DNA of 64,000 nt, from positions 44,927-108,926 of the forward strand of contig CAWDEW010000013.1 in the NCBI GenBank assembly GCA_963801445.1, read 5' to 3'. Position 1 is the stretch's first letter. Each line of letters starts with the position of its first letter. Source of the stretch: an uncultured Chloroflexia bacterium. GTDB lineage: Bacteria; Chloroflexota; Limnocylindria; Limnocylindrales; CSP1-4. A program made the translations under genes and the position numbers. The notes beneath the pieces are model-generated. The model had not been told where the DNA came from. It saw only the letters and a list, made by a program, of their open reading frames with translations, and ran no database searches. Positions 15,328 through 63,696 of the stretch are shown in pieces.

Positions 15328-16675
15328 CTACTTCGGCAGGTTGGCCAGGATCCAGGTCTGGGCAAAGAAGATCACGAAGCCGATCGAGACGACCCACATC
15401 AGCGGGTGGATCTCGCCGACCTTGCCCTTGAACAGCTTGATCAGGACCCAGGAGATGAACCCGGCGCCGATCCCGACCGTGATGTCGTAGGTCAGGGGCA
15501 TCAGGATCATCGTCAGGAGGGCGGGGAACCCATCCTCGACGTCGGTCACGTCGATGCCCTTGACCTGGGTGAACATCAGGTAGCCGACCAGGATCAGCGC
15601 GGGCGCGGTGGCGACGAGCGGGATGATCCCGGCGATCGGCGAGAGCACGATCGCGATCAGGAAGAGGGCGCCGGTCACGACCGACGTGAACCCGGTCCGG
15701 CCCCCCTCGGCCACGCCGGCGGCCGATTCGATGTAGGTCGTGTTCGAGCTGACCCCGGCGGCCCCACCGACTGCGGCCGCGATGGAGTCGACGAGGAGGA
15801 CCGGCCCGATGTTCGGGACCGAGCCGTCTTCACGGGCGAGCCCGGCCTCGGCCGCGACGCCGGTGACCGTGCCCATCGTGTCGAAGAAGTCCGTGAGCAT
15901 GATCGCGAAGACCGTCAGGACGGCCGCGATCGGGCTCAGCTTCGAGAAGACCTGGAACGGGTCCACGTGACCGAGCGTGGAGAACGACGGGGTCAGCACC
16001 AGGTCGGTCGGGAGCGTGGCAACGCCGGCCAGGATCGCGACGACCGTGGTGACCAGGATGCTGATGACCAGGGCGGCCCGGATGCGCAGGACCCACAGTG
16101 CGATCGTCAGGATCAGGCCGATCCAGAAGACGAAGTCGGCCGGCGCGCTCGGCATGTGGAACGTGACGAGCGTCGCCGGCGCGTTGGCGACGATGAACCC
16201 GCCGTTGGCGAAGCCGATGAAGAGGATGAACAGGCCGATGCCGACGCCGATCGCGCGCTTCAGGGCGAGCGGGACGGCATTCATCACCGCCTCCCGGAAG
16301 CCGACGACGACGAGGACCGTGACCGCGATGCCCTCGAGCAGGATCACGCCCATCGCACCGGCGGGCGAGAGCCCCTGGCCGATCAGCGAGTAGGCCACGA
16401 TCCCGTTGATGCCGAGGCCCGCGGCCAGCGCCAGGGGGTAGTTGCCGACGACGCCCATGGCGATCGTCATGATCCCGGCGATGAGCGCGGTCCCGGCCGA
16501 TAGGGCGACCGCCGTGAACGCCGAATTCGGCGTCCTTGAACCCGCCCATCAGGATGATCGGGTTCAGGAAGATGATGTAGGCCATGACCATGAAGGTGGT
16601 CAGGCCCGCCCGCGCCTCCGTGGCGAAGCTGGTCGCCCGCTCCTCGAACCTGAAGTACTGCGCGATCGCATTCAC
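15328..16675 (-). pseudogene. NCS2-family guanine/hypoxanthine (AzgA/PbuG-like) permease, disrupted by a single +1 frameshift
   Basis: The N-terminal 50 aa (VNAIAQYFRFEERATSFATEARAGLTTFMVMAYIIFLNPIILMGGFKDAEF) are in the frame of ORF 15830..17599. The remainder (..TIAMGVVGNYPLALAAGLGINGIVAYS...) is in ORF 15328..16470. Total span is 1348 nt (3n+1). The switch is at about 16525, inside the palindrome acgccgaattcggcgt. Confidence 0.7.
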
Positions 16676-16791
16676 TCGATGAGACCCTCCCTCTCCCTGG
16701 TGGCTGACCCCCGCCGAGGCGGGCCGCCCTCCCGGCGGCGCCCGCGGCCCTCCCGTTGCCCGGCGACCTCCCGGATCGCTCCGGGTCCGTC

Positions 16792-17277
16792 CTAGGAGCT
16801 CCCGTCCCCCTCCGGCCCGAGGAGCTCCATCTGGACGAAGCCGCTCGTGTCGAACGCAAGCTGGTGGGGAGCCTGGGCGCTCACCGCGAGCTCGCCGATC
16901 GGCGCGTACTCGAGCACGACGCGTTCGTCGGCCTGGACGAGCGTGTAGACGATCAGCTGGTCGGGCCGGGTCTCGAACTCGAGATGCTCGAACGAGTCCA
17001 CGTTCAGGCTGATCGAGACGGGGGTGAAGTAGCTCGACGTCTCCGGCTCGTCGATCACGACCCGCTCCACCCACCCGGCGCCCGACGCGACCAGCTCCCG
17101 CCCGCGGAAGTATTGGTACGAGACGGTCTGCTTCAGGAGCGGCCGGAGCAGGTTGTGGATGTCGGCGCGGAAGGAGACGATGCCGCTGTTCACGAAGAAC
17201 TTCGCGGGGCTCTGGCGCGCCATCGGGCTCCTCCTGCCGGGGCCGTGCCCGGGAGGTGCTGGGTGCCGCCGGGGCAA
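16792..17277 (-). CDS. hypothetical acidic protein (about 143 aa if it starts at MARQSPAKFF)
   Basis: ORF divergent from coaX with no recognised family. The start may be the internal ATG at about 17223. Confidence 0.4.
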   Translation of the reverse strand: MPRRHPAPPGHGPGRRSPMARQSPAKFFVNSGIVSFRADIHNLLRPLLKQTVSYQYFRGRELVASGAGWVERVVIDEPETSSYFTPVSISLNVDSFEHLEFETRPDQLIVYTLVQADERVVLEYAPIGELAVSAQAPHQLAFDTSGFVQMELLGPEGDGSS

Positions 17278-17392
17278 CCGGGGCGTCGATGGGCGGATCG
17301 TAGCGCAGCCGGGGCGCCGCGGGGAGCCCGAATCCGGTTGCGATTCGGTTGCTCCGCCGTCGCCCCGTTCCGGGCGGGCCTATCATCGAGCC

Positions 17393-20621: not shown

Positions 20622-20629
20622 CCCGTCGC

Positions 20630-31501: not shown

Positions 31502-33182
31502 ATGGACCGCCCTCGGCCGCTCGTTCCCGCCCAGGTCGCTCGGGGCTCGTCGGCGGCCGTGGTCGCGCCGCACCATCTCGCGACTGCCGCCGGCCTGGCG
31601 ATCCTGCGGGCGGGCGGCCACGCGGTCGATGCGGCCATCGCCACGAACGCCGTCCTGGGCGTCGTGCTCGGGGAGGCCTGCGGGCTCGGCGGCGACGCAT
31701 TCTGGCTCGTCTGGGACGAGGCCTCGGGCGTTCAGTCGGCGCTCAACGGCTCCGGGCGCGCCCCTGCTGCAGCCGATCCCGCCGGGCTCCGGGCGTCCGG
31801 GCTGGCCAGCCTGCCGTTCCGCGGCCCCCTGACGATCACGGTCCCCGGCGCCGTCCGGTCGTGGTCGGACGCCCACGGGCGGTGGGGCCGCCTCCCGCTC
31901 GGTGACCTGTTCGCCCCGGCGATCGAGCTCGCGGGCGAGGGCTTCCCGGCCGACGACCTGTTCGTGCGGTCCGTGGAGAGATCCGCCCGCACGTTCGACG
32001 CCGAGATCGGGACGCTGGCCGCCGGCTGGCACGCCGTCTACCGCCCAGCCGGTCGACCATGGCGCCCGGGCGAGCGCGTCCGCCTCCCGGCCCTCGCGGC
32101 CACGCTCCGCCGGCTCGCCGAGGCGGGCCTCGACGACTTCTACGAAGGGTGGGTCGGGGAGCGCCAGGCCGCCGGTCTCGCGGCCGCGGGCAGCCCGATC
32201 CGGGCCGCCGACCTGGCCGGGCACGCCTCGACCTGGGGGGTGCCGCTCGCCCTTCCCTATCGCGGCGCTGTCGCGACCACCCACCCCCCCAACAGCTCCG
32301 GCATCGTCGCTCTCGAGATCCTCAACGTGCTCCGGGCGCTGGAGCCGCCCGGGCCGGACGTCTTCGCGCCCGGCGACGGCGGCGCCTCCGCGGGCGCGGA
32401 CCTGCGCTGGGTCCACCTCGGGATCGAAGCCGCCAAGCGCGCCCTCGCCGACCGGAACGCCTACCTGACGGACCCGGCAGCCTTCCAGGCCCCGATGGAG
32501 CGCCTGCTCGACCCGGCCCATGGGGCCGCGCTGGCGCGGGCGATCGATCCGGCCAGGGCGTCGGTCCCGCCCGCCGGTGGCGTGCCGAAGGGTGGCGGGA
32601 CGATCTGGCTCGGGGTCGTCGACGGCGCCGGCAACGCGGTCAGCCTGGTCGAGTCGAACTACGCCGGCTTCGGGTCCGGGATCGTGGACCCGGCGACCGG
32701 GATCGCCTACCAGAACCGGGGCAGCTACTTCTCCCTGGACCCCGGGCACCCCAACGTGCTGGCGCCCGGGAAGCGGACCCTCCACACGCTCCTGCCCGGG
32801 ATGCTCTTCCGGGACGGCCGACCCTGGGTCGTCCATGGGTCCATGGGCGGCGACGCCCAGCCGGCCATCTACGCCCAGGTCGTGAGCGCCCTCGTGGACG
32901 GCGCTGTCGACGTGGCAACCGCGGTGGCGGCGCCGCGCTGGTCACCCGAGCCGCCGGCCCATTTCGCCCCGCCGGAGCAGGTCGCGATCGAACCGCGGTT
33001 CCGGGCCGGGCTCCTCGACGGGCTGCGGGCGATGGGCCATCGGCTCGCCGTCCGCGAACCGTTCGACGGCGGGCTGGGACACGCCCACGCCGATCGAGCT
33101 GGTGGAGGGCGGACCGGCCCGGGGCGGGACGCTCGCGGCCGCCACCGACCCGCGCTCCCCGGGCCTGCCCGCGGCGTGGTGA
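31502..33182 (+). pseudogene. ggt: gamma-glutamyltranspeptidase, +1 frameshift about 90 nt before its native stop
   Basis: Ntn-hydrolase GGT motifs (TTHPPNSSG.. GGGTIWLGVVDGAGNAVSLVESNYAGFGSGIVDPATGIAYQN). After ..GLGHAHA the conserved C-terminus IELVEGGPARGGTLAAATDPRSPGLPAAW-stop continues in the +1 frame (TGA 33180..33182). As written, the ORF instead fuses in frame to the downstream gene, giving the 746-aa ORF 31502..33742. Confidence 0.75.
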
Positions 33183-33190
33183 CGAGAGCG

Positions 33191-33742
33191 ATGGGCGACC
33201 CGTCCGGCGACCGCGCTCCCCTCCTGGCCGCCGAGGCGCGCTCGGCGCTGCTGGCGCGCTTCGGCCGGCTCACCCTGGTGGAGCTGCGCGCCCTCGACGC
33301 CGCGGTCGGGGAGCTCGCCGTGGAGAAGCGCTACCACGGCAAGGTCGATCGAGGATTCCAGCTGGCCTGGTACGACGGCCCGGAGCTCGTGGCCGCCGAG
33401 AATGCCGAGCTCGACGTCCTCTTCTCCGACGTGATGATCGCCCTCGCCCATGGTGTGACCGGCGTGGACGTCGAACGGACCGCAGATCGCCCGGCTCCCC
33501 GGGGGCGCGGCCTGTTCTCCGGCATGACGGCGTTCTTCCTGGCGCCCTCGCGCACGCGCCAGCTGCAGGACGCGGCGATCGAGCTCATCGAGGGTGCCGC
33601 CCGACCCGCGGACCTTCGCCGGGGCATCGTCGCCTGCTGGAACGTGGCCTGCGCAGCGGCGCTGCGAGGGCATCTCCACCCGGAGGTCGTGACGACCCTG
33701 GAGGTCGCGTGGCGACGGGCTCTCGGCGATCCGCCGGCCTGA
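33191..33742 (+). CDS. hypothetical protein (183 aa)
   Basis: ATG 8 nt after the native ggt stop, starting MGDPSGDRAPLL.... No recognised family. Confidence 0.5.
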   Translation: MGDPSGDRAPLLAAEARSALLARFGRLTLVELRALDAAVGELAVEKRYHGKVDRGFQLAWYDGPELVAAENAELDVLFSDVMIALAHGVTGVDVERTADRPAPRGRGLFSGMTAFFLAPSRTRQLQDAAIELIEGAARPADLRRGIVACWNVACAAALRGHLHPEVVTTLEVAWRRALGDPPA

Positions 33743-34159: not shown

Positions 34160-34973
34160 CTGAGCACCGCCGCGGCGCCCGGCTCCATCCCGGTCGACGC
34201 CGCCGCGCTCGGTGATGCCCGGCGCAGGCTCGCGCTGGACATGCTGGGGATCATCGCCTCCGCGGTCGGCTTCGGCGTCGTCTTCGGGCTGACCGCGCGG
34301 TCCAGCGGGTTCTCGCCGCTGGAGGCATCGGCATTCTCGGTGCTCGTCTTCGCGGGGGCCTCGCAGTTCGCCGCGGCCGGCATGGTGGCGGCCGGGTTCG
34401 CGTGGCCCGCGATCATCGTGCTCACCGCGCTGGTCAACGCCCGCCATGCGCTCTATGCGGCGGCGCTCGCCCCGTGGCTGCGCGAGCGGTCCCGCCTGGA
34501 GCGCGCCGCGATGGCCCACGTGCTCACCGACGAGTCGTTCGCCCTGAGCCTCGTCCACTTCCGGCGGGTCCGCTTCGCCGATCGGCGGGGCTACTGGCTG
34601 GCCGCGATCGGCGGCGTCTTCATCCCCTGGAACCTGGCCACGCTGGTGGGCGTGCTGGGCGGCCAGATCGTGCCGGACCCCCGGGTGCTCGGGACTCGAC
34701 GTCGTCTTCCCGGCCGCGATGGCCGGGCTCGCGGTGGGCCTCGCGACGGGCCGGCGGGAGGTCGTCGCGGGCGGGGCCGGGATCCTCGTGGCGCTTGCCG
34801 TGGGACTCCTGGTGGACCCCCGGGCAGGCGTGTTCGCAGGCGGCGTGCTGGGGCCCGTCGCCGGCCTCCTGGTTCCGCGCCACGACGCGGCCGTGCCCGA
34901 GAGCGACGAGCGGCCGGCGGACCCGGACGCGTTCCGGATCCCGGATCGATCCGAGGACGGGATGGCCCCGTGA
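34160..34973 (+). pseudogene. azlC: AzlC-family branched-chain amino-acid exporter permease, +1 frameshift at about 34694; start codon uncertain
   Basis: ALDMLGIIASAVGFGVVFGL..FAGASQFAAAGMVAAG..LVNARHALYAA.. is in the frame of ORF 34016. The C-terminus LDVVFPAAMAGLAVGLATG...MAP continues in ORF 34719..34973. An inserted a lies in gtgctcggg-a-ctcgac. No canonical start codon lies upstream of the conserved N-terminus, which suggests a further error or an unusual start. Confidence 0.65.
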
Positions 34974-35302
34974 GCTCGCAGCTCGTCCTGCTCGCGGTGC
35001 TGATGGCGGCCGTCACGTACCCGGCGCGCGCGGTCCCGCTGCTGGTTCCCGCCTTCGAGCGCCTGCCGCCGCGGGTGCTGGAGTACCTCCGACTGGTCGG
35101 GCCGGCCGTGCTCGGGTCGATCGCGGCATCCCAGGTCCTCCTGGCGATCGGCCCGGACGGACATGCCACCCTCCACGTCGGCCTCGACGCCCTGGCCGTG
35201 GTCGCCTGCGCGGGCCTGGTCGCCTGGCGGCGGTCGCTCTTCCTCGGCCTCCTCGTCGCGGTGGTCCTCGTCGCGACGCTCCGGGCGGCCGGAATCGCCT
35301 GA
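34970..35302 (+). CDS. azlD: AzlD-family branched-chain amino-acid transport protein
   Basis: The GTG overlaps the azlC stop (GTGA). 110 aa with 4 TM helices, LAVLMAAVTYPARAVPLL.... Confidence 0.7.
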   Translation: MSSQLVLLAVLMAAVTYPARAVPLLVPAFERLPPRVLEYLRLVGPAVLGSIAASQVLLAIGPDGHATLHVGLDALAVVACAGLVAWRRSLFLGLLVAVVLVATLRAAGIA

Positions 35303-39189: not shown

Positions 39190-40588
39190 TCACGGGCGCC
39201 GGCGGACCACGGACGGTCGGGCGACCCTGCGGGCGCGTCGAGCTCGCCCGGATCCCGCGAAGGCGGCCCCGCCCGGCGCGCCGAGGAGGGCGCTCGCCTC
39301 CCGGTAGGCGCTCGCGGCATCGTCGACGCAGCACACGACCAGGTCGCCCGGGGCGGCCCGACGCATCGCCGCGCGGACCGCGGACAGCTCGTCGAGGATG
39401 GTCTGCACGTGGGTCGTCCGCGACTCGCCGGCGTCTCGCGCCTCGCGGACGCCGGCGAGCGTGTTCGCAGCGGACTCGCCGGGAGGCCGCCCCCGGGGGT
39501 CGCGGTCCTCGCGGACGTAGAGCTCGTCGAAGGCCGCGCTGGCGAGGCGGCCGTAGGCCCGCTGGTCCTCGTCGCGCCGATCGCCCGGGATGCCGACGAC
39601 GCCGATCGCCCGGCCGACGCCGCTGGCCCGCGAGACCGGACGCAGGCCCCCCGGAGGGTTCCATCATCCGGCCCACGAAGTCGGCCAGGCTGCGCATCCC
39701 GTCGACGTTGTGGCAGTAGTCGATCACGATCCGGATTCCGCCCAGCTCCAGGAGGTTGAGCCGACCGGGCGCGTTGAGGAACGAGGTCGTGAAGGTTCGC
39801 AGCCCCTGACGGATGTCGGGCAGGCCGGCGCCCGCCGCCCACGCGGCCGCGGCCGCCCCCAGCGCATTGGCGACGTTCATCCGGGCCTTGCCCCCGAACG
39901 TCGCCGGGACGAGATGGGTGCCCAGGACCGGCATCGTGCGTGACCCGAGGCGCAGGACGATCAGCTCGCCCTCGAGCGTCGCCTGGAGGGCGAACGCCGC
40001 ACCGCCCCGCCCGCAGTGACCATCGACCCGGTCCCAGCCGTCGCTCCCCTTCTGGGTGGCCATGCTGAAGTAGACGACCCGGCCGGCGGACTGGGAGACC
40101 ATCCGGGCGACCAGCGGGTCGTCCGCGTTGAGGACGGCCGTCCCGGACCTGGGGACGGCCTCGACGAGCGCGCTCTTCAGCAGGGCAAGCTGGCCGACGG
40201 TTTCGATCCCGCCCAGGCCGAGGTGATCGGCGGTCACGTTGGTGACCAGGGCCACGTCGTTGCGGTCGTAGCCCAGGCCTTCGCGCAGGATCCCGCCGCG
40301 CGCCACCTCGAAGACGGCCATGTCGACGGCGGGATTCCGGAGCACCAGCTGGGCGCTCCTCGGGCCGGACCTGTCGCCCTTCCTGACCAGCCGCCCGTCG
40401 ATGACGATCCCGTCCGTGGAGGTCATCCCGACTCGCCGGCCCATCAGCCTGAAGATGTGGGCGATCATCCGGACCGTCGTCGTCTTCCCGTTGGTGCCGG
40501 TGACGGCGACGATCGGGATCCGGGCGGGCGTCCCCGGCGGGACCTTGTCCTCCGCCCCGCCGACGACGAGGAGATGGCCGCTCGACAT
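39190..40588 (-). pseudogene. stand-alone Mur-ligase-family protein homologous to the C-terminal domain of cyanophycin synthetase (CphA), +1 frameshift in a C6 run
   Basis: PGTPARIPIVAVTGTNGKTTTVRMIAHIF...TDGIVIDGRLVRKGDRSGPRSAQLVLRNP..ARGGILREGLGYD..DHLGLGGIETV..VLNADDPLV..VYFS..RTFTTS..GRLNLLELGGIRIVIDYCHN is closely colinear with the CphA Mur-ligase module. The C-terminus (..GRAIGVVGIPGDRRDEDQRAYGRL...ILDELSAVRAAMRRAAPGDLVVCCVDD..) continues in ORF 39190..39408 once one C is removed from the run at 39647..39652. No ATP-grasp domain lies upstream. Confidence 0.75.
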
Positions 40589-50251: not shown

Positions 50252-52330
50252 TCAGCCCACCAGCTGCGCCGCGAGGGCCTCGGGCTCCGTCACCGGTTGC
50301 CGGCAGGCGAAGGAACGGCACACGAAGGCCGTCGGCGCGCCCCCGATCGCGAAGCGGGCCTGGAGGAGGGCCACGGCCGAGGCCGCTGGATCGGACGCCG
50401 TCGCCAGCACCAGGCGCGGCCGGTACGTTCCCCGGGCAGCGCGCAGAAGGCGCATCGTGCGGGGATCCGATCGCTCGCCGACGATCGCAACCTCCGCGAC
50501 GGGACCAACCTGCCAGTCCATCGCCACGAGCCACTGGGCGAACGCGGTCGGATAGGCAGCGGCCGCCGGGCCGATCGCCCGGAGCGCCGCCCCGGCCGCG
50601 TCCGCGTACGCCCCGTTGCCGGTGAGCGCCGCGAGGCGAAGGAGCACGGTGGAGGCCATCGCGCCGCCCGACGGGACCGCGTTGTCCTCGAGCGCCTTCG
50701 GCCGGGCCACGAGCACCTCCGCGTCGACGGCGGTGTCGAACCAGCCCCCGGCCGGGTCCGCGAAGCGGGCGAGGATCGCGTCGGCCAGTCCGCAGGCGGC
50801 CAGGAACCAGCGCTCGGTCCCGGTCGCCTCGTAGAGCGCGACGAGCCCCTCGGCGAGGCAGGCGTGATCTTCGAGCGTGCCGGCGTGAAGCGCGCGGCCG
50901 TCCTTCCACGAGCGCCGCAGGAGGCCGGCCGCGTCGGGCAGCGCATCCACCAGCTGGCCGGCCGCGCGCTCGGCCAGCGCCCGGTATCGAGCGCCCGCGG
51001 CGGCGAGCTGCGGATCGGGCTCCAGGGCCAGCCGCCCCGCCGCTTCGGCAAGGGCCGCGATCATCAGGCCGTTCCAGGCCGCCAGCGCCTTGTCGTCGCG
51101 AGCCGGCTGGGGACGTCGGTCGCGAGCAGCGCCCAGGGCCGCCCTGGCCCGGGCGAGGCGCTCCGCCACCTCGGCCGCCGCCAGGCCGTGGCGCCCGGCA
51201 AGCGCGGCGTCCGAGGCGGCGCGCCGGAGGATGACCCGCCCCTCCCAGTTGCCCGCCGGCGCGACGTCATAGGCGGCACCGAAGAGTTCCACGTCCGCGG
51301 CCAGTCCGGCGGCTCCCAGCACCGCGGCGACCTCGTCGGCAGCCCAGGTGTACGTGGCCCCCTCCTCGCCGCCGGTGTCCGCATCGAGGCTCGCCGCGAA
51401 CGTCCCGTCCGGACGGGTCATCTCGCGGGCCACGAAGTCGAGGGTCGTCCGGGCCACGTCGAGGTAGGCGGGGTCGCCGGCGAGCTCCCAGGCGTGCAGG
51501 TACGCCCGGGCCAGCTGGGCGTTGTCATAGAGCATCTTCTCGAAATGGGGCACGAGCCAGGTCGGGTCCGTGCTGTAGCGGGCGAAGCCGCCGCCCAGCT
51601 GATCGTGGATGCCGCCGGCCGCCATCCGGTCGAGCGTGCGCCGGGCGATGGGCAGCGCCCGCGCGTCGCCGGCGGCCGCCCGCCGCAGCAACAGCTCGAT
51701 AGCCATCGGCTGGGGGAACCTGGGGGCCGAGCCCCATCCCCCATTGACCGGGTCGAAGCCCGCGTCGAGCGCCGCGACCGCCCGGTCCAGGAGTCCCTCG
51801 TCGGGCTCGGCGTCCCCGTCGGAGAGCCGGCGCGGCCGGGCGAGCTCCGCGGCCAGGGCGCTCCCGGCCCGCTCCACCTCGTCGCGACGTTCGCGCCAGG
51901 CGGCGGCGATCCCGTCGAGAACGTCCCGAAAAGCCGGCAGCCCGTGGCGCCTCGCGTTCGGGAAGTAGGTGCCCCCGTAGAACGGGCGCCCGTCCGGGGT
52001 CAGGAAGACGCTCATCGGCCAGCCGCCGGAGCCGGTCAGCGCCTGCACGGCGGCCATGTAGACGGCGTCGAGGTCGGGCCGCTCCTCGCGGTCCACCTTG
52101 ATGCTCACGAAGTGGTCGTTGAGGAACGCCGCCGTGCCCGGGTCCTCGAACGACTCGCGCTCCATGACGTGGCACCAGTGGCAGGCCGCGTAGCCTATCG
52201 AGAGGAAGATGGGGCGATCCGCCAGGCGGGCGCGCTCCAGCGCCGACGGGCCCCACGGCTCCCAGTCGACCGGGTTGTGGGCGTGCTGGAGGAGGTACGG
52301 GCTGGTCTCGCCCGCGAGGCGGTTCGGCAT
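50252..52330 (-). CDS. thioredoxin-domain protein of the YyaL/DUF255 family (N-acylglucosamine-epimerase-like alpha/alpha barrel)
   Basis: [47 protein letters not shown] at the N-terminus, then the long alpha/alpha toroid region. The start was chosen at M11. Confidence 0.8.
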
Positions 52331-52484
52331 GGCAGGGCCGATGGTAGCCCGGCGTCCCATCCGTCACGATCCGGACGATGCGGCTCGGTCGACCCCGGCC
52401 GGTCAGGCGCGTGCGGCCGAGGTAGCGTCGGGCCGGTCAGATCTCCATAACAGAGAGTCCACAATTCACATATAGAAAAGCCAC

Positions 52485-52517
52485 TTGACAGATTGGCAAG
52501 TCGTCGTCCAATATGCT
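52485..52517 (+). promoter_or_regulatory. promoter-like elements inside an approximately 90-nt AT-rich island (TTGACA ... CAATAT/TATGCT)
   Basis: Region 52441..52530 (atctccataacagagagtccacaattcacatatagaaaagccacTTGACAgattggcaagtcgtcgtcCAATATGCTcgc) is sharply AT-rich against a 72% GC background. It lies between the divergent yyaL-like gene and the small-ORF/DUF2089 operon. Confidence 0.35.
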
Positions 52518-52543
52518 CGCACGAAGCACAGGAGACGTGGGGC

Positions 52544-52687
52544 ATGAACCAGTATCCGATCCTCTTTCCACGGCGGGGGGCCGCAGAGCTGCGCCGGCAG
52601 CTCGTCGAGTCCAGCATCCGGCGCGACCTGCGTCGCGCCGCCGAGTGCGCCCGCCGGGAACGGCCCCTCGGCAAGGAGCGCGGCTGA
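52544..52687 (+). CDS. small protein (47 aa) translationally coupled to the DUF2089 gene
   Basis: AGGAGA SD 8 nt upstream of the ATG. MNQYPILFPRRGAAELRRQLVESSIRRDLRRAAECARRERPLGKERG. Its stop overlaps the next ATG (TGATG). Confidence 0.35.
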   Translation: MNQYPILFPRRGAAELRRQLVESSIRRDLRRAAECARRERPLGKERG

Positions 52688-53133
52688 TGCCGCACGACGC
52701 CATCGCCACCTGCCCGATCTGCGCCGGGGAGCTCGCCGTGACGCGCCTCCACTGCCGCGCCTGCGGGACGACGCTGGAGGGCGACTTCAACGTCGGGCGC
52801 TTCGCCCGGCTCGGTCGCGACCAGTTCGCCATGCTCGAGAGCTTCCTGCGCTCCCGGGGCAACCTCAAGGAGATGGAGCGCGAGCTCGGGATCAGCTACC
52901 CGACCGTCAGGGCCCGGGTGGAGGGACTGCTCCGGGCTCTGGGCCTCTTCGATGGCCCCGTGGTCGATGGCGACGAAGAGTCGATCGAGGCGGCCGCTCC
53001 CGTCGTCGCCGCACCCGCCATCCGTTCGGCCGAGGAGACCGCCGCGGCGCGGCGCCAGATCCTGGAGCGGCTCGCCCGGCGTGAGATCGACGCGGCCACC
53101 GCGGCTTCCGAGCTGCGCGGGCTGGGCGCCTGA
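52687..53133 (+). CDS. DUF2089 family protein (zinc ribbon plus HTH)
   Basis: MPHDAIATCPICAGELAVTRLHCRACGTTLEGDF.. then FAMLESFLRSRGNLKEMERELGISYPTVRARV, a helix-turn-helix. Confidence 0.65.
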   Translation: MPHDAIATCPICAGELAVTRLHCRACGTTLEGDFNVGRFARLGRDQFAMLESFLRSRGNLKEMERELGISYPTVRARVEGLLRALGLFDGPVVDGDEESIEAAAPVVAAPAIRSAEETAAARRQILERLARREIDAATAASELRGLGA

Positions 53134-53134
53134 G

Positions 53135-54076
53135 ATGGACCTCGATCCGACCCCGGCTCCCGATCCGGAGCGGAGCCACGACATCGGTCCGGCGGGGCTC
53201 GTCGTCGTCGAGGTGACGGCCGACGACGTGCGCGTGCGCGGCGTGGACGGGACCGTCGCCCGGCTCGTCTCCGGCCACGCCCCCGAGGCACTGCGCATCG
53301 AGACCGGCGATCGTCGCCTGGTCGTCCGGTCGCGCGTCGGTGGGCCGGGCGCGTTCATGGGGATCCGGATCGGCAGCTGGGGCTTCGGGACCACCATCTC
53401 GGGAACGGTCGAGCTGGAGGTCCCCCGGGGCAGTCGCCTGGAGATCACGACGGCCTCGGGCGACGTCGCGGTTCGCGACGTCCAGGGCGGGGTCCAGGTC
53501 CGGACCGCGAGCGGCGACGCCTCCCTGCGCGGGGTCGCCGGCGACGTGAGGTTCCAGGGCGCGTCCGGGCGGCTCACCGTGGTCGCCGAAGCGCCGATCA
53601 GCCTCAGGGCGGAGACGATCTCCGGCGACGTCGGGGTGGAGGCGCCCCGGGTCGACGGGGCCCAGGTCCGCACCGTGAGCGGCGACGTCGAGATCGCCAC
53701 GACGTTCGCGCCGGTGGGCGCCCACGCCATCGAGACCACCTCGGGCGACGTGGAGCTGGCCGTCGGCGGCGGGCTGACCCTCGATGCCCGGACCGTGTCC
53801 GGGGACGTTGACGTCAGCCACCCGGACCGGGTCCGCGGTCGCGAGCGCCGAGACCCGATCGTCATCGGCGACGGATCCGCGCGCCTCACCGTCCGGACGC
53901 TCGCCGGTGACATCGACGTGCGGCGAGGCGCTCCGGCCGCGAAGCCGGCAACCCCGGCGGCTCCCCGCGACGACCCCGCGCTCGACATCCTCGAGGCGCT
54001 CTCGCGGGGCGAGATCGATGTCGCGGAGGCGGAGCGGCGGCTCGTGGCCGCGGGTAGCGGTGGACCCGATGCCTGA
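53135..54076 (+). CDS. DUF4097 family beta-repeat protein (putative adhesin / LiaF-C-like)
   Basis: Repeated SGDV/SGDA beta-strand units (ASGDVAVRDV, ASGDASLRGV, ISGDVGVEA, VSGDVEIAT, TSGDVELAV, VSGDVDVSH, LAGDIDVRR). The ATG lies 2 nt after the DUF2089 stop. Confidence 0.65.
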   Translation: MDLDPTPAPDPERSHDIGPAGLVVVEVTADDVRVRGVDGTVARLVSGHAPEALRIETGDRRLVVRSRVGGPGAFMGIRIGSWGFGTTISGTVELEVPRGSRLEITTASGDVAVRDVQGGVQVRTASGDASLRGVAGDVRFQGASGRLTVVAEAPISLRAETISGDVGVEAPRVDGAQVRTVSGDVEIATTFAPVGAHAIETTSGDVELAVGGGLTLDARTVSGDVDVSHPDRVRGRERRDPIVIGDGSARLTVRTLAGDIDVRRGAPAAKPATPAAPRDDPALDILEALSRGEIDVAEAERRLVAAGSGGPDA

Positions 54077-54476
54077 CCCGCTCGAGGACGTCCTGCGGCT
54101 GGTCGCGGAAGGGCGGCTCACGCCCGCGGAGGCCGCCCCGATCATCTCCGCGCTCAGCGATCGCGGCACGTCCGGGCTCGACGGCAGGGGCGGGGCCGGG
54201 CCGGCAGGTTCGACGCCGCCGCCTCGACCCGGGCGCGGCCCCGCGCGGTCGGCGGACGATCGCCCGCCACGCCTCCGGATCGCGGTCCGCGACAACGGCC
54301 GGACGGTCGTCGACCTGCAGGTCCCGGGTGTCCTCGCCGAGCTCGCCGCGTCGCTGCCCGGGATCCCGGCGGCGTACACGGACCGCGTGCGCGACGCCCT
54401 GCGGGCCGGGATTCGCGGCCAGATCGTAGACATCCGGGACGACGGCGGCGGCGGCCTCTCCATCGTGATCGACTGA
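54069..54476 (+). CDS. hypothetical protein (135 aa) with a SHOCT/DUF1707-like N-terminus
   Basis: The start overlaps the DUF4097 end by 8 nt. MPDPLEDVLRLVAEGRLTPAEAAPIISAL..., a Gly/Pro linker, then a beta-rich C-terminus. Confidence 0.45.
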   Translation: MPDPLEDVLRLVAEGRLTPAEAAPIISALSDRGTSGLDGRGGAGPAGSTPPPRPGRGPARSADDRPPRLRIAVRDNGRTVVDLQVPGVLAELAASLPGIPAAYTDRVRDALRAGIRGQIVDIRDDGGGGLSIVID

Positions 54477-54530
54477 CCGATTCCCGGTCGCAGCCCGGGT
54501 GGACCGCGCCGGGTCGCTACGATTGCCGGG

Positions 54531-55856
54531 ATGCCCAGGGCGCCCCACCTCCCGCGTGCAGCGCGCACCGCCCTCGACGAGTGGCGGGCGTTCGGCCACC
54601 CGCGCTACCGGACGTTCCACGGGATCGGCGGTGGGGCGGCAGCCGTATTCGCCCTGGCCGGCGACGGCCTCACCATCCCGCTGCTCCTCGCGCTCGGGAC
54701 GCCGGCGGGCGTCGCCACGATCATCGGCGTCCTGCCCATGGCGTTCTCGGCGGCCCAGCTGCTGGTCCCGAGCCTGCTCCGCCGGACGGACGGGAACCTG
54801 CGCATGGTCACGCTGGGCATCCTTGCCGTGGGCGAGACCCGCGGCCTGATCCTGGCGGCGATCGTGGCCCTCCACGAGCTGCACGTCATCCCGTCCCCGG
54901 CCGCGGTCGTCGCGATCGCCCTGGTGATGAGCGTGGCCGGGGCCGCCTCCGCCATCGGCGGGGCGAACCTCCTCGCCTGGTACGGCGCCATCCTTCCCGA
55001 GACGGAACGGCGCTTCGTCGCGCCCAGGGTGCAGGGGATGAGCCAGGGCCTGGGGGCCGTGCTCCTCCTGCCGGTGGCCCTCGTCGTACAGGTGGGCCTC
55101 GGGGCCATCGGCCTGCTGGTCTACGGCTTCGTGTTCGTGGCCGCCGGCCTGCTGGGGATCGGGGAGCTGGCCGTCGTCACGCGCCTGCGGCACCCGGGCC
55201 GGGTGCACGTCGCGCCGCGGGGCGAGGCGCCGCCGCGCTCCCCCGAGACCGGGCGCTTCATCCGGGACGTCGCGATCGCGGCGATCGGGGCGGGCCTGGG
55301 GCCCTATCTCTCGATCTACGCGATCAGCGTCCTGCACCTGCCCCCGGGCTTCGCGATCGTCCTGTCGGCGCTCGCCTCGGCCGCGTCGCTGACGTCCGCG
55401 ACGATCGTCAGCGGCTGGCTCCACCGGGGATCCGCGTCGCGGACGCTGCGGCTCAGCTTCATCATGCGCGGCGGCTCGATGATCCTCGGGCTGCTTGCCT
55501 TCCCGGGCAATCCGCTGGCCTGGCTGGTCCTGTGCGCGGTCTCGATCCTGGCCACGGCGGGCTGGGCGGCCGGCTCCCTGGCGGCCAACGAGCGCCTCCT
55601 TCGCCTCACGGGGGGCGTGGACCTGATCGGCGCGCAGGCCGCGTTCGTGGCCTGGAGCGCCGCCGGGGTCACCGCCGGCCAGGTCGCGTCGGGCACGATC
55701 CTGGCGATCGTCCCGCTGGGCTACCTGCCCTTCGCGGCGCTCTTCGCGATCTCCGGGCTGACCCGGCTCATCCTGGCGACACGCGTTGACGTCGGCCCCG
55801 GCTGGTCGTCGGCGACGGCGGCCTTCGACGTCGAGGAGCTCAAGCGCGGCCGTTGA
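54531..55856 (+). CDS. MFS transporter
   Basis: 441 aa with 12 TM helices. Confidence 0.7.
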   Translation: MPRAPHLPRAARTALDEWRAFGHPRYRTFHGIGGGAAAVFALAGDGLTIPLLLALGTPAGVATIIGVLPMAFSAAQLLVPSLLRRTDGNLRMVTLGILAVGETRGLILAAIVALHELHVIPSPAAVVAIALVMSVAGAASAIGGANLLAWYGAILPETERRFVAPRVQGMSQGLGAVLLLPVALVVQVGLGAIGLLVYGFVFVAAGLLGIGELAVVTRLRHPGRVHVAPRGEAPPRSPETGRFIRDVAIAAIGAGLGPYLSIYAISVLHLPPGFAIVLSALASAASLTSATIVSGWLHRGSASRTLRLSFIMRGGSMILGLLAFPGNPLAWLVLCAVSILATAGWAAGSLAANERLLRLTGGVDLIGAQAAFVAWSAAGVTAGQVASGTILAIVPLGYLPFAALFAISGLTRLILATRVDVGPGWSSATAAFDVEELKRGR

Positions 55857-58858: not shown

Positions 58859-59518
58859 ATGACCAAAGCGTCGCTCGACGATCTCGACCTCGTCCTCAAG
58901 ACGATGGCCAGGACGATCGTTGACAACGCGGAGTACTTCGCCCACCTGGACTCGATCGTCGGCGACGGCGATTTCGGCTATTCGCTGCGGAACGGGTGGG
59001 AGGTCGTCGTCAGCGACTACGACACGTTCGACCACGCCAGCGCCGGGACGATCCTCAAGAAGGTCGGCCTGACCCTGACGGGCAAGGTCGGGGGCGTCAG
59101 CGGGCCCATCTGGGGCACCGCCTTCCTGCGGGCCGGGATCACCGCCGCGGACCGGACGGAGCTCGCGCCCGAGGACGTCATCGCGATGCTGCGCGCCTCG
59201 ATCACCGGGATCATGGCCCGCGGCGGGGCGTCGCTCGGTGAGAAGACCCTGCTCGACGCCCTGGTCCCGGCCACCGACAGCCTCGAGGCGGCGATCACCG
59301 ACCCGGCGATGCAGGGCGATCACGGCGTGGCCGCCATCCAGCGGGCCGCCGACGTGGCGGTCAAGGCCGCCGAAGACACCAAGCCAATGCTCGCGCTGCG
59401 CGGCCGGGCCGCGTACACGGGCGACCGGAGCATCGGCTCCGTCGACGCCGGCGCGACCGCGATCGGCGTGATCCTCCAGGCGATCAGCGCCGCTTGGCGC
59501 GAGAAGTACGGAAGTTGA
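58859..59518 (+). CDS. dhaL: dihydroxyacetone kinase subunit L (ADP-binding)
   Basis: DSIVGDGDFGYSL, GGVSGPIWG, LRGRAAYTGDRS motifs. Confidence 0.85.
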   Translation: MTKASLDDLDLVLKTMARTIVDNAEYFAHLDSIVGDGDFGYSLRNGWEVVVSDYDTFDHASAGTILKKVGLTLTGKVGGVSGPIWGTAFLRAGITAADRTELAPEDVIAMLRASITGIMARGGASLGEKTLLDALVPATDSLEAAITDPAMQGDHGVAAIQRAADVAVKAAEDTKPMLALRGRAAYTGDRSIGSVDAGATAIGVILQAISAAWREKYGS

Positions 59519-59528
59519 GGAAGCACGA

Positions 59529-60524
59529 GTGAAGAAGTTCCTGAACGACCCGAAGCAGTTCGTCCCCGAGTTCCTGGAGGGAATCCAGCTCGCCAGCGAC
59601 GGGGCCCTCAAGTACGAGCCCAAGTACAACCTCATCTACCGCGCGGACATGCCCCGGGACGACAAGGTCTCGATCATCCAGGGCTCGGGTTCCGGCCACG
59701 AGCCCGCCCACACGATGATCGTGGGCAAGGGGATGCTCGACGCCGCCTGCCCGGGCGACGTGTTCGCCGGCCCGCCGGTCGAGTTCGTCGTCGAGACCTC
59801 CAAGCTGATGAACTCGGCCAAGGGCATCCTCCACATCGTCAACAACTACACCGGCGACAAGGCCGCCTTCGAGATGGGGCGCGAGCTCTGCGAGGCCGAG
59901 GGCCTGCGGATCGAGACCCTCCTCGTGAACGACGACGTGGCCGTCAAGGACTCCACCTGGACGGTCGGCCGCCGTGGCGTCGCCGGCAACTTCTTCGTCA
60001 TCAAGGCCGTCGGCGCGGCGTCCGAGAACGGCGCCGACCTCGACGAGCTGGTGCGCATCGGGAACAAGGTCATCGGCCAGGTCCGGACGATGGGCATCGC
60101 CCTGAGCTCGTGCACGCCGCCGACCCGGGGCACGCCCCTCTTCGAGATCGCCGACGACGAGATGGAGGTCGGGATCGGCATCCACGGCGAGCCGGGCCGC
60201 CAGCGAACCAAGCTCGTCGGCGCCAACGAGATCGTCGACATCCTGCTCAACGCGATCGTTCCCGACCTTCCGTTCGTCGCCGGGGACGAGGTCGCACTCA
60301 TGGTCAACGGCCTGGGCGGGACCCCGATCACGGAGCTGTACCTGCTCTACGGGATCGCCCACAAGAAGCTGGCCGCAAAGGGCATCAAGGTCTTCCGCAG
60401 CTACGTCGGTGAGTACTGCACGTCGCTCGAGATGGCCGGTGCCCACCTCTCGCTGCTCAAGGTGGACGACGAGCTCAAGAAGCTCCTCCTCGCCCCGGCG
60501 GAGATCGCCTATCGCGTCTTCTAG
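59529..60524 (+). CDS. dhaK: dihydroxyacetone kinase subunit K (Dha-binding)
   Basis: IIQGSGSGHEPAH with the substrate-binding His, plus NNYTGD motifs. Confidence 0.85.
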   Translation: MKKFLNDPKQFVPEFLEGIQLASDGALKYEPKYNLIYRADMPRDDKVSIIQGSGSGHEPAHTMIVGKGMLDAACPGDVFAGPPVEFVVETSKLMNSAKGILHIVNNYTGDKAAFEMGRELCEAEGLRIETLLVNDDVAVKDSTWTVGRRGVAGNFFVIKAVGAASENGADLDELVRIGNKVIGQVRTMGIALSSCTPPTRGTPLFEIADDEMEVGIGIHGEPGRQRTKLVGANEIVDILLNAIVPDLPFVAGDEVALMVNGLGGTPITELYLLYGIAHKKLAAKGIKVFRSYVGEYCTSLEMAGAHLSLLKVDDELKKLLLAPAEIAYRVF

Positions 60525-60626
60525 CCCCGGCAATCTCCGGCCCGGTGGCGGTTCCGCGTACCTGCCACCGGGCCCTTCCGTTCGTTCGGGGCGGGGGCCG
60601 GGTGGTGCCTGCGCGCCGCCCGGCTC

Positions 60627-61289
60627 TCAGGCGACCGTGAGAACCGTCAGGACCGTGGCCGCGCCGACGATCGTGCACGCGACGAACAGCGAGATCCAGC
60701 CGGCGCGACCCTCGCGGGCCACCGCCGCGAGACCGGTCAGCACCCCGGCGAGGGCCAGGAACGAGAGGCCCAGCACGGCCCGGAGCTGGCGCGAGCCGGC
60801 GTCGTTCGACTCGTCGACCAGCTGGCCCTGGCGGGCCACCTCGGCCTGGAGGTCCCCGGCCACGGCCTTCACGAGGCTCGCCGCGTACGCGTCGAGGGGG
60901 GCGCCGCCGCTGGTCGCCGCGGTCGCGCTGAGCGCGGCAGCGAGCTTCTCGGACGCGGCCTGTTGCGCCGTCCCGATCGCGAAGGCAGCCGTGTCCGAGA
61001 GCTGGGCCGCCGAGATCATCCGGCTGAGGCCCTCCATCCCCAGCACGAGCGCCTCCTGCTGCGCCCGGAGGGCCGAATCCGTTGCGAGCGCGTTCGCCGA
61101 CACCCGGGCCGAGACGTCCGCCGCGAGGCGGGCCGACTCCACCTGGGCCCGGGTGGACGTGTTGCCGTAGTCCGTCTGGAGGATCGCCAGGACGGCCGCG
61201 AGGATGGCGATCAGGCCGACCAGCGTGGTGGCGACCCGGTCGAAGCGGGCCTCGCTGCGCCAGCGAGCGGCGGCGTCCGGCTCGATCAT
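60627..61289 (-). CDS. hypothetical membrane protein (N-terminal TM, Ala/Gln-rich helical region, C-terminal TM pair)
   Basis: Starts MIEPDAAARW.. (M49 of the ORF). Shares its architecture with the gene immediately upstream. Confidence 0.45.
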   Translation of the reverse strand: MIEPDAAARWRSEARFDRVATTLVGLIAILAAVLAILQTDYGNTSTRAQVESARLAADVSARVSANALATDSALRAQQEALVLGMEGLSRMISAAQLSDTAAFAIGTAQQAASEKLAAALSATAATSGGAPLDAYAASLVKAVAGDLQAEVARQGQLVDESNDAGSRQLRAVLGLSFLALAGVLTGLAAVAREGRAGWISLFVACTIVGAATVLTVLTVA

Positions 61290-61329
61290 GCCCCGACCTC
61301 CCCGCTGGATCGCGTGCGGGCGCGGCGGC

Positions 61330-62113
61330 TCACCCGAGGAGCTCCGCGCCGACAGCCACGGCGGCTCCGGCCGCCAGCGCCAGCGACCCCAGCGCCAGGA
61401 GCAGCCGGCGGCGACGGATGAGCGGTTGGGCAAGGGCGCCCAGGAGCACGGCGATGCTGACCGGCATCACCGCCAGGGTCGAATGCAGGGCGTGCAACGC
61501 GAGGCGATCCCCCGTCGCCCACGCGGCGTCGGGGTCGAGGGCCACGATGTCGGGCGGCCTTCCCCGTCAGGTCGGCGAGCCGTTTCCCGAGGTCGAGGCC
61601 GCCGGACGGCAGCGCGTACAGGGCTCCGGTCGCCAGGTCGGAGCTGGGCTCGATCGCGGTGAGGAGCCCCGACTGGACGCCCACCTCGAAGGTGAGCGCC
61701 TGCGCGGTCGACCCACCGGCGGCCGCGGCCGACTGCAGCTCCGCGACCAGGAGTCGCGACTGGAGGATCCGGATCGCGATCGGGAGCTCGGACTGGTAGA
61801 GGTAGCGGATGTCCTCGATCGCGCTCGCGGAACGCTTGACCTCGGTCCGGAGGGCGGACTGCCACGCATCGCCCGCGTCGCTCGAGAGGGCCGACGCCCG
61901 CGCGCCCACGATCGCCGCGAGGATCGCCGCCGTCCCCAGGAGCAGGGCCACCCCGCGGTGACCGTGCCCCTCCCCGGCGACCGCGGCAGGAGCGGCGTCG
62001 GCCGCCGCGTGCACGGCGTCGGCCGCCGCGTGCACGGCGCCGGCCGGGGCGGCGGGCGCGGCGCCCCGGCCCGGCAAGGCGCCACCCGGCGGCAGCTCGT
62101 TCGACTGGTCCAT
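61330..62113 (-). pseudogene. paralogous hypothetical membrane protein with the same TM-helical-TM architecture, +1 frameshift at about 61550
   Basis: The N-part (..[31 protein letters not shown]) is in ORF 61286..62113. The C-part (IVALDPDAAWATGDRLALHALHSTLAVMPVSIAVLLGALAQP...) is in ORF 61330..61545. Confidence 0.4.
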
Positions 62114-62247
62114 CCCCTCTCCTCGCGCGGCGCATCGGCGCCCTCCGTTCGTCGGAGTATGCCGGACAGCGCCCGGGCCATGGAAGGGCGATGCCCGCGT
62201 CCGCGACCGTCGCCCGGACGCATCCGGGCTGGGCGTATCCTCCCGCG

Positions 62248-63696
62248 GTGGACCGCTGGAAGACGATCATCGAGCCGTTCCGGATTCACTCCGTCGAGCC
62301 GATCCGGATGACCACCCGGGCGGAGCGCCTGGCGGCGATCGAGGCAGCCGGTTGGAACCTCTTCAACCTCCACGCCGACGACGTCCTCGTCGACCTCCTG
62401 ACGGACTCCGGCACCGGCGCGATGAGCCGCGACCAGTGGGCCGCGATCCAGCACGGCGACGAGAGCTACGCGGGCAGCCCCAGCTGGTTCGTCTTCCTGG
62501 AGGCCGTGCAGGACCTCTTCCCCTTCCGCCACGTCATCCCGACCCACCAGGGCCGGGCCGCCGAGAAGATCCTCTTCTCGGTGATCGGGGGCGCCGGGCA
62601 AGGCGATCCCCAACAACACCCACTTCGACACGACCCGGGCGAACGTCGAGGCGACCGGCGCCGAGGCGGTGGACCTGGTCATCGAGGAGGGCCGCCACCC
62701 CGAGGTCGAGCACCCGTTCAAGGGCAACATGGACCTCGCCCGGCTCGAGGCGTTCCTCGCCGAGCGCGGCGCGGCCGTGCCAGTCGTCTTCGTCACGATC
62801 ACCAACAACTCGGGCGGAGGCCAGCCGGTCAGCCTGGCGAACCTGCGCGGCGTGCGGGCGCTGTGCGACCGGTTCGGGGTGCCGCTCTTCCTCGACGGCT
62901 GCCGGTTCGCCGAGAACGCCTGGTTCATCAAGGTGCGCGAGCCCGGCCAGGCCGATCGACCGGTGGTCGAGATCGTGCGCGAGGTCGGGAGCCTGGCCGA
63001 CGGGATGACCATGTCAGCCAAGAAGGACGGGCTGCGCCAACATCGGCGGCTGGCTGGCCATGAACGACGATCGCCTCGCCGAGCAGTGCCGCAACCTCCT
63101 GATCCTGACCGAGGGCTTCCCGACCTACGGGGGGCTCGCGGGCCGCGACCTCGAGGCGATCGCCCAGGGCCTGCGCGAAGTGGTCCACGAGGATTACCTG
63201 CACTACCGGATCCGGAGCACGGCCTACCTCGGGGACGCGCTCTCCGCCGATGGGATCCCGGTTGTGCGGCCGATCGGCGGGCACGCGGTCTACCTCGACG
63301 CCCGCGCGACTGCTGCCCCACATCCCGCCCCTCGAGTACCCGGGCCAGGCCCTGGCCGTCGCGCTCTACGTGGAGGGCGGCATCCGGGGCTGCGAGATCG
63401 GGACCGTGATGTTCGGCCGCCACCCGGACGGGACCGAGACGCCCGCCGCCATGGACCTCGTCCGCCTGGCCATCCCCCGCCGGACCTACACCCAGAGCCA
63501 CGTGGACTACGTGATCGAGGTGATCCGCTTCGTCGCGGCGGGCGCGGCCGGCCTGCACGGCTACCGGATCGTCGACGAGCCGCCCGCGCTGCGGCACTTC
63601 ACGGCCCGTTTCGAGCCTCTCCGGGCGAGCGGCCCCGGGAGCGCGCCCCGGAAGGTGACTCGGAACGTCCGGGGAGCGCCGGCAGGGCGGCCGTAG
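62248..63696 (+). pseudogene. tryptophanase / tyrosine phenol-lyase family (beta-eliminating lyase) gene with three +1 frameshifts
   Basis: Four colinear frame segments together reconstruct a full approximately 480-aa TnaA/TPL-like protein. They are (V)[44 protein letters not shown]; [52 protein letters not shown]; [37 protein letters not shown]; and [46 protein letters not shown]. The frame switches are at about 62613, 63025 and 63312. Confidence 0.75.

Follow-up and report, generated by a model that had tools for sequence, protein, structure and literature searches.

Eight single-base frame breaks in a Limnocylindrales metagenome contig are most probably long-read consensus errors and not signs of gene decay

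The question raised by this locus is whether six genes with interrupted reading frames are being lost by the bacterium or were broken only in its assembly. The window, meaning the whole 64-kb stretch of DNA analyzed here, is part of a 329,824-bp contig from the MAG of a soil bacterium of the Limnocylindrales (Chloroflexota), a MAG with a GC content of ~74%. A preliminary description of the same DNA had listed eight breaks in six genes, all in the +1 direction and each removable by deleting one base, and had attributed them to systematic insertion errors, not pseudogenes. Our analysis led to the same attribution, to which we give a probability of roughly 0.9: the breaks are deduced to be single-base insertion errors in the consensus of a metagenome assembled from long reads only, in genes that have not decayed. 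This was deduced from a near-identical sister contig, the selection acting on tnaA, a comparison of sequencing technologies, and artefactual products already in public collections.

Breaks were detected from a codon-usage Viterbi path over the six frames, in which a frame switch without a stop/start boundary was scored. Such switches were found at 16520 (NCS2 permease, minus strand), 34693 (azlC), 39654 (cphA-like gene, minus strand), 61550 (membrane protein gene, minus strand), and 62595, 63034, and 63308 (all tnaA). The break in ggt at 33091 was missed by the path because the gene end was too near, and was instead seen in the translations and in tblastn searches with the ORFs of relatives, where it was net +1 against four of them. 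All eight listed breaks were thus present, and each was +1, corresponding to one extra base or, equivalently, to two missing bases. The direction was the same in 8 of 8 (two-sided P = 0.008), as had been claimed, and four of the breaks fell within 1742 nt (P = 0.005). The listed positions required some correction, since the break in the membrane protein gene is at 61567 and not at ~61550, and that in the cphA-like gene can be placed only within about 39607-39660. The features concerned are collected in Table 1.

Table 1. Features of the window that carry or adjoin the frame breaks (window coordinates)
Feature	Coordinates	Strand	Remarks
NCS2 permease (xanthine/uracil/adenine-type)	15328..16675	-	one extra base at ~16515-16535, position only approximate
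ggt, gamma-glutamyltranspeptidase	31502..33182	+	extra base at 33091-33092 (GCC[G]ATC or GC[C]GATC); true stop 33180-33182
ORF downstream of ggt, 183 aa	33191..33742	+	no family match; follows ggt as a gene of its own in relatives
azlC, branched-chain amino-acid exporter subunit	34193..34973	+	extra base at 34692-34694 (GG[G]ACT or GGG[A]CT); AzlC Pfam match
azlD, intact	34970..35302	+	AzlD Pfam match, positions 2-99 of 99; overlaps true azlC stop
cphB'-'cphA relic	39190..40588	-	cyanophycinase (cphB) codons 1-16 in-frame with the Mur-ligase (M) half of cyanophycin synthetase (cphA)
Membrane protein gene, no known family	61330..62113	-	extra base at 61567 (minus-strand CTG[A]CGG)
tnaA, tryptophanase	62248..63696	+	extra C at 62592, extra C or G at 63034-63037, extra A at 63309 (GCG[A]CTG)

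No further frameshift was found in the 64-kb window by the Viterbi path, by reverse tblastn with the ORFs of relatives, or from Pfam model coverage of the other genes, in agreement with the earlier statement that the other long genes are intact. Two candidates were rejected along the way. An apparent -1 break at ~60280 in dhaK (tblastn) was traced to out-of-frame matches caused by frameshifts in a relative (L002) and not in the window, and a missing N-terminal Pfam match in coaX was assigned to an internal insertion in the protein. The broken genes contained no in-frame stops. Inspection of the eight sites by eye for a shared sequence or methylation motif (GATC, GCGC, GAATTC) gave nothing beyond the expectation at 74% GC.

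Removal of one base restored each gene, as judged from full-length family or homologue matches and from matches across the repaired junctions. The repaired NCS2 permease gave a single Xan_ur_permease Pfam match (model positions 6-386 of 389), its residues 2-448 aligned in one stretch to a homologue (P0382) with 65% identity, and its junction peptide matched a second homologue (P0384). The repaired ggt product covered model positions 2-512 of 512, and was 559 aa long, as in most homologues; its junction peptide agreed exactly or almost exactly with seven relatives, which its C-terminal 35 residues also matched. As written, the ggt break joins the downstream ORF in frame and produces an artefactual 746-aa ORF (31502-33742), and this fusion is an entry in a public collection (P0532). 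The azlC break was likewise net +1 against relatives, and the repaired junction, PDPRVLGLDVVFPAAMAGLAVGLATGRRE, matched seven relatives identically or nearly so. In the raw sequence azlD lies in the frame of the 5' part of azlC, and a single stop-free stretch (34010-35299) covers both.

A separate assembly of the same population was available in a sister contig, L083 (ENA ERZ25039554, contig_97569), which is 98.5% identical to window positions 59254-63648. The extra bases at 61567, 62592, 63037, and 63309, which are all four of the sites in the overlap, are absent from L083, and its tnaA (485 aa) and membrane protein gene (259 aa) are therefore intact. After repair, the membrane protein aligns from end to end with an intact protein of 259 aa (P0142) at 96% identity, and the broken 275-aa product of the window is itself present in the public collection (P0143). 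Artefactual fusions and truncations had been predicted for this contig, and the 746-aa and 275-aa entries bear this out. The membrane protein had also been labeled a paralogue; sequence similarity did not support this, as BLASTP gave no significant alignment with the adjacent 220-aa membrane protein (E = 0.25).

For tnaA, the repaired product reads through all three junctions with ~90% identity to 19 intact tryptophanases and retains most of the columns that are invariant among them. The extra bases were also placed by DNA alignment to two further relatives (L001 and L002), and the extra C at 62592 interrupts what is a G6 run in L083. Comparison with L083 over 466 codons gave 24 synonymous and 7 nonsynonymous codon differences, which indicates purifying selection. 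A lost T in the tnaA stop codon, which would have counted as a deletion, was considered as the origin of a 24-codon C-terminal extension and was rejected because the same extension is present in L083.

L083 probably comes from the same kind of assembly and serves as an independent consensus, not as an error-free reference. Its dhaK, a gene intact in the window, is broken by a private deletion of 1 nt (C4 to C3, window position 59652). This near-identical comparator covers four of the eight sites only. The other four sites, in NCS2, ggt, azlC, and the cphA-like gene, could be compared only with relatives of 65-81% identity at best, and a protein search for a near-identical relative through ggt gave nothing above 81% identity. 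Relatives at this distance support the expectation that these genes are intact, not the intactness of this strain's own copies. At each of the eight positions the orthologues in relatives keep one frame, and the comparison with related loci that the preliminary description had proposed, taken together with the sister contig, favors assembly error.

The nature of the inserted bases bears on the type of error. Of the four extra bases that L083 resolves, three differ from the bases on both sides, namely, an A in G_C at 61567, a C within a run of G at 62592, and an A in G_C at 63309; the fourth (63034-63037) is ambiguous and is either C or G. The three are therefore not homopolymer extensions. The earlier remark that the breaks usually lie within short homopolymers was found to be uninformative, since a randomly inserted base would match a neighbor 52% of the time and only 1 of the 28 runs of at least 6 nt is affected. 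Errors of the classical homopolymer-length type, which are expected of platforms prone to them such as 454, Ion Torrent, or older Nanopore chemistries, would be favored by the coincidence of one site with the C6 run at 39647-39652, given that such runs make up 0.27% of the window, and by the private error of L083, itself a homopolymer contraction. With 27 of the 28 runs untouched and three of the four resolved bases differing from both neighbors, this type of error is considered improbable. For three of the four resolved insertions, a SNP to L083 is no more than 3 nt away (P of ~0.001-0.008). The non-homopolymer bases and this proximity to SNPs may together point to a read pile-up that was thin or strain-mixed, which would also account for the regional clustering of the breaks.

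The cphA-like gene requires separate treatment. A single frame break is present, as described, but the gene is not simply a broken cphA: it is a deletion fusion of cphB codons 1-16 with the Mur-ligase half of cphA. Against TIGR02068 the product matched positions 472-855 of 862 only, with 443 bits, below the 850-bit cut-off, so that the full CphA architecture is lacking. It shares with CphA the M (Mur-ligase-like) domain and with CphB the N-terminal motif GGAEDKV, whereas the CphA N-terminal and ATP-grasp (G) domains and nearly all of CphB are missing, and the product is a fusion and not a synthetase. In three relatives (L010, L014, and L025) a full cphB ('...IIGGAEDKVRDRVIL...') is followed by a full-length cphA, and in the closest relatives the cph cluster is absent. 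The gene is a real deletion relic, and the deletion of ~2 kb is independent of the single-base break. After repair, the Mur_ligase_C match crosses the junction; the C6 run is the likely site of the break, although it sits in a variable linker. Because the gene is truncated, this particular break could be a real mutation.

The dependence of such breaks on sequencing technology was assessed at 80 syntenic loci in MAGs of the same lineage, comparing the Nanopore-only MAGs of Microflora Danica (MFD) with short-read MAGs. The MFD MAGs contained 52 frameshifts in 113,499 aligned codons, of which 45 were net +1 (~87% insertions; P = 7e-8 for the bias to +1), and the short-read MAGs contained 1 in 76,015 (Fisher P = 8e-11). 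The density in the window (0.125 per kb) resembles that in the MFD loci (0.153 per kb). Breaks were also found in the ggt, azlC, and cphA orthologues of MFD MAGs, at different residues from those in the window, which argues against a conserved programmed site. The nearest contigs bear Flye-style names in ENA, and the relatives are mostly MFD-LR MAGs, which were assembled by Flye from Nanopore reads only and were polished in a single Medaka round, short reads playing no part in the polishing (PMC12313526). Of the suggested origin in an unpolished long-read MAG, the long-read part is probable; if the genome belongs to the MFD catalogue, however, it was polished once with Medaka (PMC12313526).

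The principal competing explanation is that the breaks are real and mark recently inactivated accessory genes, with tnaA and its neighbor having gained several disabling insertions after loss of function. The clustering of three breaks in tnaA and one in the adjacent gene would also be expected of a dead locus, all six genes encode dispensable accessory functions, and the cphA-like gene is a true relic, which together with the absence of the cph cluster from the closest relatives indicates that gene loss is under way in the clade. Decaying genomes such as that of Mycobacterium leprae similarly show multiple frame disruptions, sometimes several per gene, in dispensable genes. In the window, however, the lesions are not shared by the 98.5%-identical L083, which is intact at every testable site, tnaA shows no sign of relaxed constraint, in-frame stops are lacking, and all of the lesions are insertions. 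Bacterial pseudogenes are deletion-biased. Since, in addition, other long-read MAGs show the same signature at a comparable density and the short-read MAGs of the lineage lack it, we consider inactivation unlikely. A further possibility is that the extra bases are real and arose from a lineage-specific mutational process, such as an error-prone polymerase or a repair defect, with a strong bias to single-base insertions outside homopolymers. Short-read assemblies would then have collapsed to the majority allele and long-read assemblies alone would have captured the insertions; we regard this as less probable still.

Least probable of all is that the genes are functional as written, with programmed +1 ribosomal frameshifting or transcriptional slippage carrying the cell past the breaks. 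The uniform +1 direction is compatible with this, as it is with the programmed frameshift in prfB (RF2), and one site falls in a G6/C6 run, where slippage would be possible. The prfB site, however, is conserved in orthologues, and its slippery and stop context is defined, whereas none of the sites in the window is conserved, the orthologues being in a single frame throughout and the breaks in other MAGs lying at different residues. By eye, no common context was seen among the eight sites. To our knowledge, three recoding sites in one 1.4-kb gene would be unprecedented. Recoding is deemed effectively refuted by the lack of conservation.

Insertion errors in the consensus therefore remain the preferred explanation, and the following course of events is proposed. 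The source is most probably a MAG of the Microflora Danica long-read type, assembled from Nanopore reads with Flye and one round of Medaka, the platform being deduced from the relatives and from the error signature. The extra bases would exist in the assembled sequence only, with the genes of the organism intact and in use, and the errors may have arisen where the read pile-up was thin or where co-assembled strains were mixed. Gene callers would then yield products that are truncated, fused, or in fragments, such as the 746-aa ggt fusion, the pieces of tnaA, and the membrane protein with a wrong C terminus.

This matches in several respects what has been reported for indels in Nanopore-only assemblies (Sereika et al. 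2022, PMC9262707; PMC13543314; PMC12313526), namely, single-base consensus indels that shift reading frames and leave gene calls split or fused, and that gather in certain MAGs but are not seen in assemblies from short reads. It differs in that the literature consulted stresses homopolymers (PMC13543314) and, for MFD-LR, genomes of low GC and low coverage, whereas here the genome has ~74% GC, insertions account for 8 of 8 breaks in the window and 45 of 52 in the related MFD loci, and three of the four resolved bases are not homopolymer extensions. The catalogue's own check considered coding density, low GC, and long homopolymers, and the only genomes for which it noted problems were those of low coverage and low GC (PMC12313526), which implies that the high-GC class of insertions was not flagged. 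A literature search for an insertion bias of R10.4.1/Medaka in high-GC genomes returned only general statements on long-read errors.

The practical point is one of data quality, and the biological interest is low. In this lineage, the coding sequence of high-GC MAGs from a large Nanopore-only catalogue contains ~0.1-0.15 frameshifts per kb, overwhelmingly +1 insertions and often outside homopolymers. The resulting fused and fragmented proteins are already public and will distort pseudogene counts, inferences of gene content and metabolism, and family alignments for these lineages. The organism itself almost certainly has intact NCS2, ggt, azlC, membrane protein, and tnaA genes, and its biology in this respect is ordinary.

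The window is ~74% G+C throughout, because of which raw ORF lists are full of spurious frames, and the true coding frames were read from third-position GC and a seven-state codon-usage Viterbi path. This path switched frame on the same strand, without a stop/start boundary, in seven places (16520, 34693, 39654, 61550, 62595, 63034, and 63308). The break in ggt at 33091 leaves just 90 nt out of frame and was seen in translations and in tblastn searches with the ORFs of relatives. All eight breaks shift the reading frame after them by +1, equivalent to one extra base, and a single direction for eight of eight breaks has a two-sided P of 0.008. The preliminary description had reported eight breaks, all +1, and this was confirmed by the Viterbi path, translations, tblastn, and one-base repairs; all eight are present, with the membrane gene break placed at 61567 rather than ~61550 by alignment to L083, a near-identical sister contig. 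The sites are clustered, four of them lying inside 1742 nt (P = 0.005). No further frameshift in either direction was found in the window by the Viterbi path, by tblastn with relatives' ORFs, or from Pfam coverage of the remaining genes. An apparent −1 match at 60280 (tblastn) was found to be a frameshift of the relative, and an oddity in the Pfam model coverage of coaX was assigned to an internal insertion.

One-base repairs restored the proteins. The repaired NCS2 permease gave a single Xan_ur_permease match (model positions 6-386 of 389), its residues 2-448 aligned unbroken to a 65%-identical homologue, and its junction peptide agreed with a close homologue. Repaired ggt covered all 512 model positions and encoded 559 aa, the length of most homologues, with a C terminus agreeing with seven relatives; near-exact agreement with seven relatives was likewise obtained for the azlC junction peptide. 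In the cphA-like product the Mur_ligase_C match runs across the junction. All three junctions of tnaA were read through at ~90% identity to 19 intact tryptophanases, and the membrane protein aligned from end to end with the intact P0142 (259 aa) at 96% identity.

P0142, found by the membrane-protein search, sits on L083, a 5,958-bp ENA contig (ERZ25039554, contig_97569) that is 98.5% identical to window positions 59254-63648, with 56 substitutions. Comparison with related genomes, as proposed in the preliminary description, was run on this contig, and all four testable breaks are absent there: the extra bases of the window (61567, 62592, 63037, and 63309) are exactly the four breaks of the interval, and both tnaA (485 aa) and the membrane gene (259 aa) are intact in L083. 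Conversely, at window position 59652 L083 has C3 for C4, a private 1-nt deletion that splits its dhaK into calls of 269 aa and 62 aa, whereas dhaK in the window (59529-60524) is intact. Each contig therefore carries private frameshifts in genes intact in the other, and these assemblies contain single-base losses as well as gains. Between the two contigs the membrane gene has 11 synonymous and 8 nonsynonymous differences, and an in-frame 3-nt (GGG) length difference at 62046-62048 lies in its low-complexity N-terminal region. The identity breaks off sharply at 63648, close to where tnaA ends (window 63649-64000; L083 1-1572), and the downstream neighbours differ, L083 having a partial gene of 523 aa on the opposite strand. 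Window tnaA has a C-terminal extension of ~24 codons (63622-63696) that is not in the 458/459-aa relatives. Its first part is common to the 485-aa L083 protein, so the extension is deduced to be real and a lost stop codon is ruled out as its cause.

On the aligned sequences, three of the four extra bases resolved against L083 (see the table) are not homopolymer extensions. The preliminary description had located the breaks mostly in short homopolymers or dinucleotides, which is at chance level, as a random inserted base is expected to match a neighbour in 52% of cases and only 1 of the 28 runs of at least 6 nt coincides with a break. Three of the four resolved insertions have an SNP to L083 within 3 nt (P about 0.001-0.008), and around the insertion at 61567 there are 12 substitutions in 84 nt (61557-61640), compared to about 1 per 100 nt elsewhere; this patch may reflect recombination or a consensus of mixed strains. 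We infer that the errors may occur at places with a thin or heterogeneous read pile-up, the SNP-proximity basis for this being weakened by alignment ambiguity next to gaps.

Features of the window and the extra bases resolved against L083
Feature	Position	Gene or strand	Description
Extra A	61567	membrane gene	between G and C, minus-strand CTG[A]CGG
Extra C	62592	tnaA	inside G6 run of L083, GGGGG[C]G
Extra C or G	63034-63037	tnaA	in CTGCGCC, ambiguous
Extra A	63309	tnaA	between G and C, GCG[A]CTG
cphB(1-16)::cphA(M-domain) in-frame fusion	39190-40588	minus	cyanophycinase codons 1-16 + Mur-ligase half of cyanophycin synthetase
~6-kb block before tnaA			SorC-type regulator, aldolase, HAD hydrolase, Dak2, Dak1, two membrane proteins
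H+-pyrophosphatase	6913-9138	minus	full length, Pfam positions 1-645/645
Gene labelled hppA in the preliminary description	50252-52360	minus	

The sequencing technology was examined through 80 syntenic loci from an M20-peptidase scan of GTDB species representatives. All relatives by tryptophanase, ggt, and M20-peptidase were Chloroflexota/Candidatus Limnocylindrales MAGs. Thirty-eight of the loci come from "MFDxxxxx.bin" MAGs of the Microflora Danica (MFD) long-read catalogue, which were built by Flye from Nanopore data only and given a single Medaka 1.8.0 polishing round, with no short-read polishing step described (PMC12313526); the rest come from short-read MAGs. Frameshifts were counted from chained tblastn HSPs of window proteins (repaired ggt, azlC, and cphA-like products and intact neighbours including lhr). 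The MFD loci gave 52 frameshifts in 113,499 aligned codons and the short-read loci 1 in 76,015 (Fisher P = 8e-11). The net shift was +1 in 45 of the 52 (direction bias P = 7e-8) and +2, possibly two insertions, in 5 of the other 7. Per kb, this corresponds to 0.153 (aligned coding sequence) for MFD and 0.004 for short-read MAGs, compared to 0.125 for the window. The +1-biased signature therefore belongs to that kind of assembly rather than to the lineage. The frameshifts are unevenly spread, with a concentration in certain MAGs, among them L008 (15, within 21 kb), L077 (11), and L038 (7). Many +1 frameshifts in ggt, azlC, gdh, lhr, the M20 peptidase, and others were noted in these three and in the long-read loci L051, L064, and L076, and the dhaK region of L002 is likewise frame-broken.

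From these sequence comparisons the eight breaks are most probably assembly errors (probability about 0.9), as the preliminary description had proposed, a reading supported by L083, by selection, and by the technology control. Real recent pseudogenisation, in which the extra bases would be present in the organism, is very unlikely. Against a dead gene, tnaA differs from L083 by 24 synonymous and 7 nonsynonymous changes in 466 codons (three extra columns removed); it is under clear purifying selection, incompatible with a gene dead long enough for three independent insertions. For the cphA-like gene alone, the break may be a real frameshift. Programmed recoding is excluded because break positions are not conserved: the MFD frameshifts form regional clusters and hit the same orthologues at differing residues. 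Other explanations are each less probable than pseudogenisation.

The cphA-like gene, counted in the preliminary description among the six broken genes, was assigned to a deletion fusion. Its repaired product begins MSSGHLLVVGGAEDKV, the cyanophycinase N terminus, and matches the cyanophycin synthetase model at positions 472-855 of 862 only; it is not a synthetase. At the same place a complete cphB and, after it, a full-length cphA are present in more distant relatives (L010, L014, L025, and others), and the closest relatives have neither. This arrangement indicates that the fusion is probably the remnant of a ~2.2-kb deletion, a stage on the way to losing the cph cluster. It is 76% identical to L010, a level similar to that of the intact genes around it, so the deletion would be recent or the fragment still constrained.

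Elsewhere in the window, there would be two H+-pyrophosphatase copies if both labels hold. In L001, a relative's locus, a block of DUF2089, DUF4097, unknown, and 441-aa unknown genes (124-3513) lies directly upstream of tnaA; its window counterpart (52513-55856) is parted from tnaA by the ~6-kb block. The label "paralogue" for the broken membrane gene (61330-62113) is unsupported, as no significant similarity to the neighbouring 220-aa membrane protein (60627-61289) was found by BLASTP (E = 0.25).

Exact look-ups found window proteins in the public collection, assigned to one contig of 329,824 bp in NCBI and ENA, among them the artefactual fusions and truncations that had been predicted: P0532, a 746-aa fusion of ggt with downstream sequence; P0143, a 275-aa membrane protein with a wrong C terminus; and P0534 (290 aa) and P0535 (148 aa), both pieces of tnaA. 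P0532 belongs to a 90%-identity cluster represented by a 55-aa Thauera hypothetical protein, which looks like an odd clustering result of the collection. The closest NCS2 matches in the 50%-identity representative library include several fragments, and P0384, the close homologue of the NCS2 junction comparison, looks frameshifted, its C-terminal part being out of register with homologues. As artefacts, the breaks are of modest technical interest and of low biological interest.
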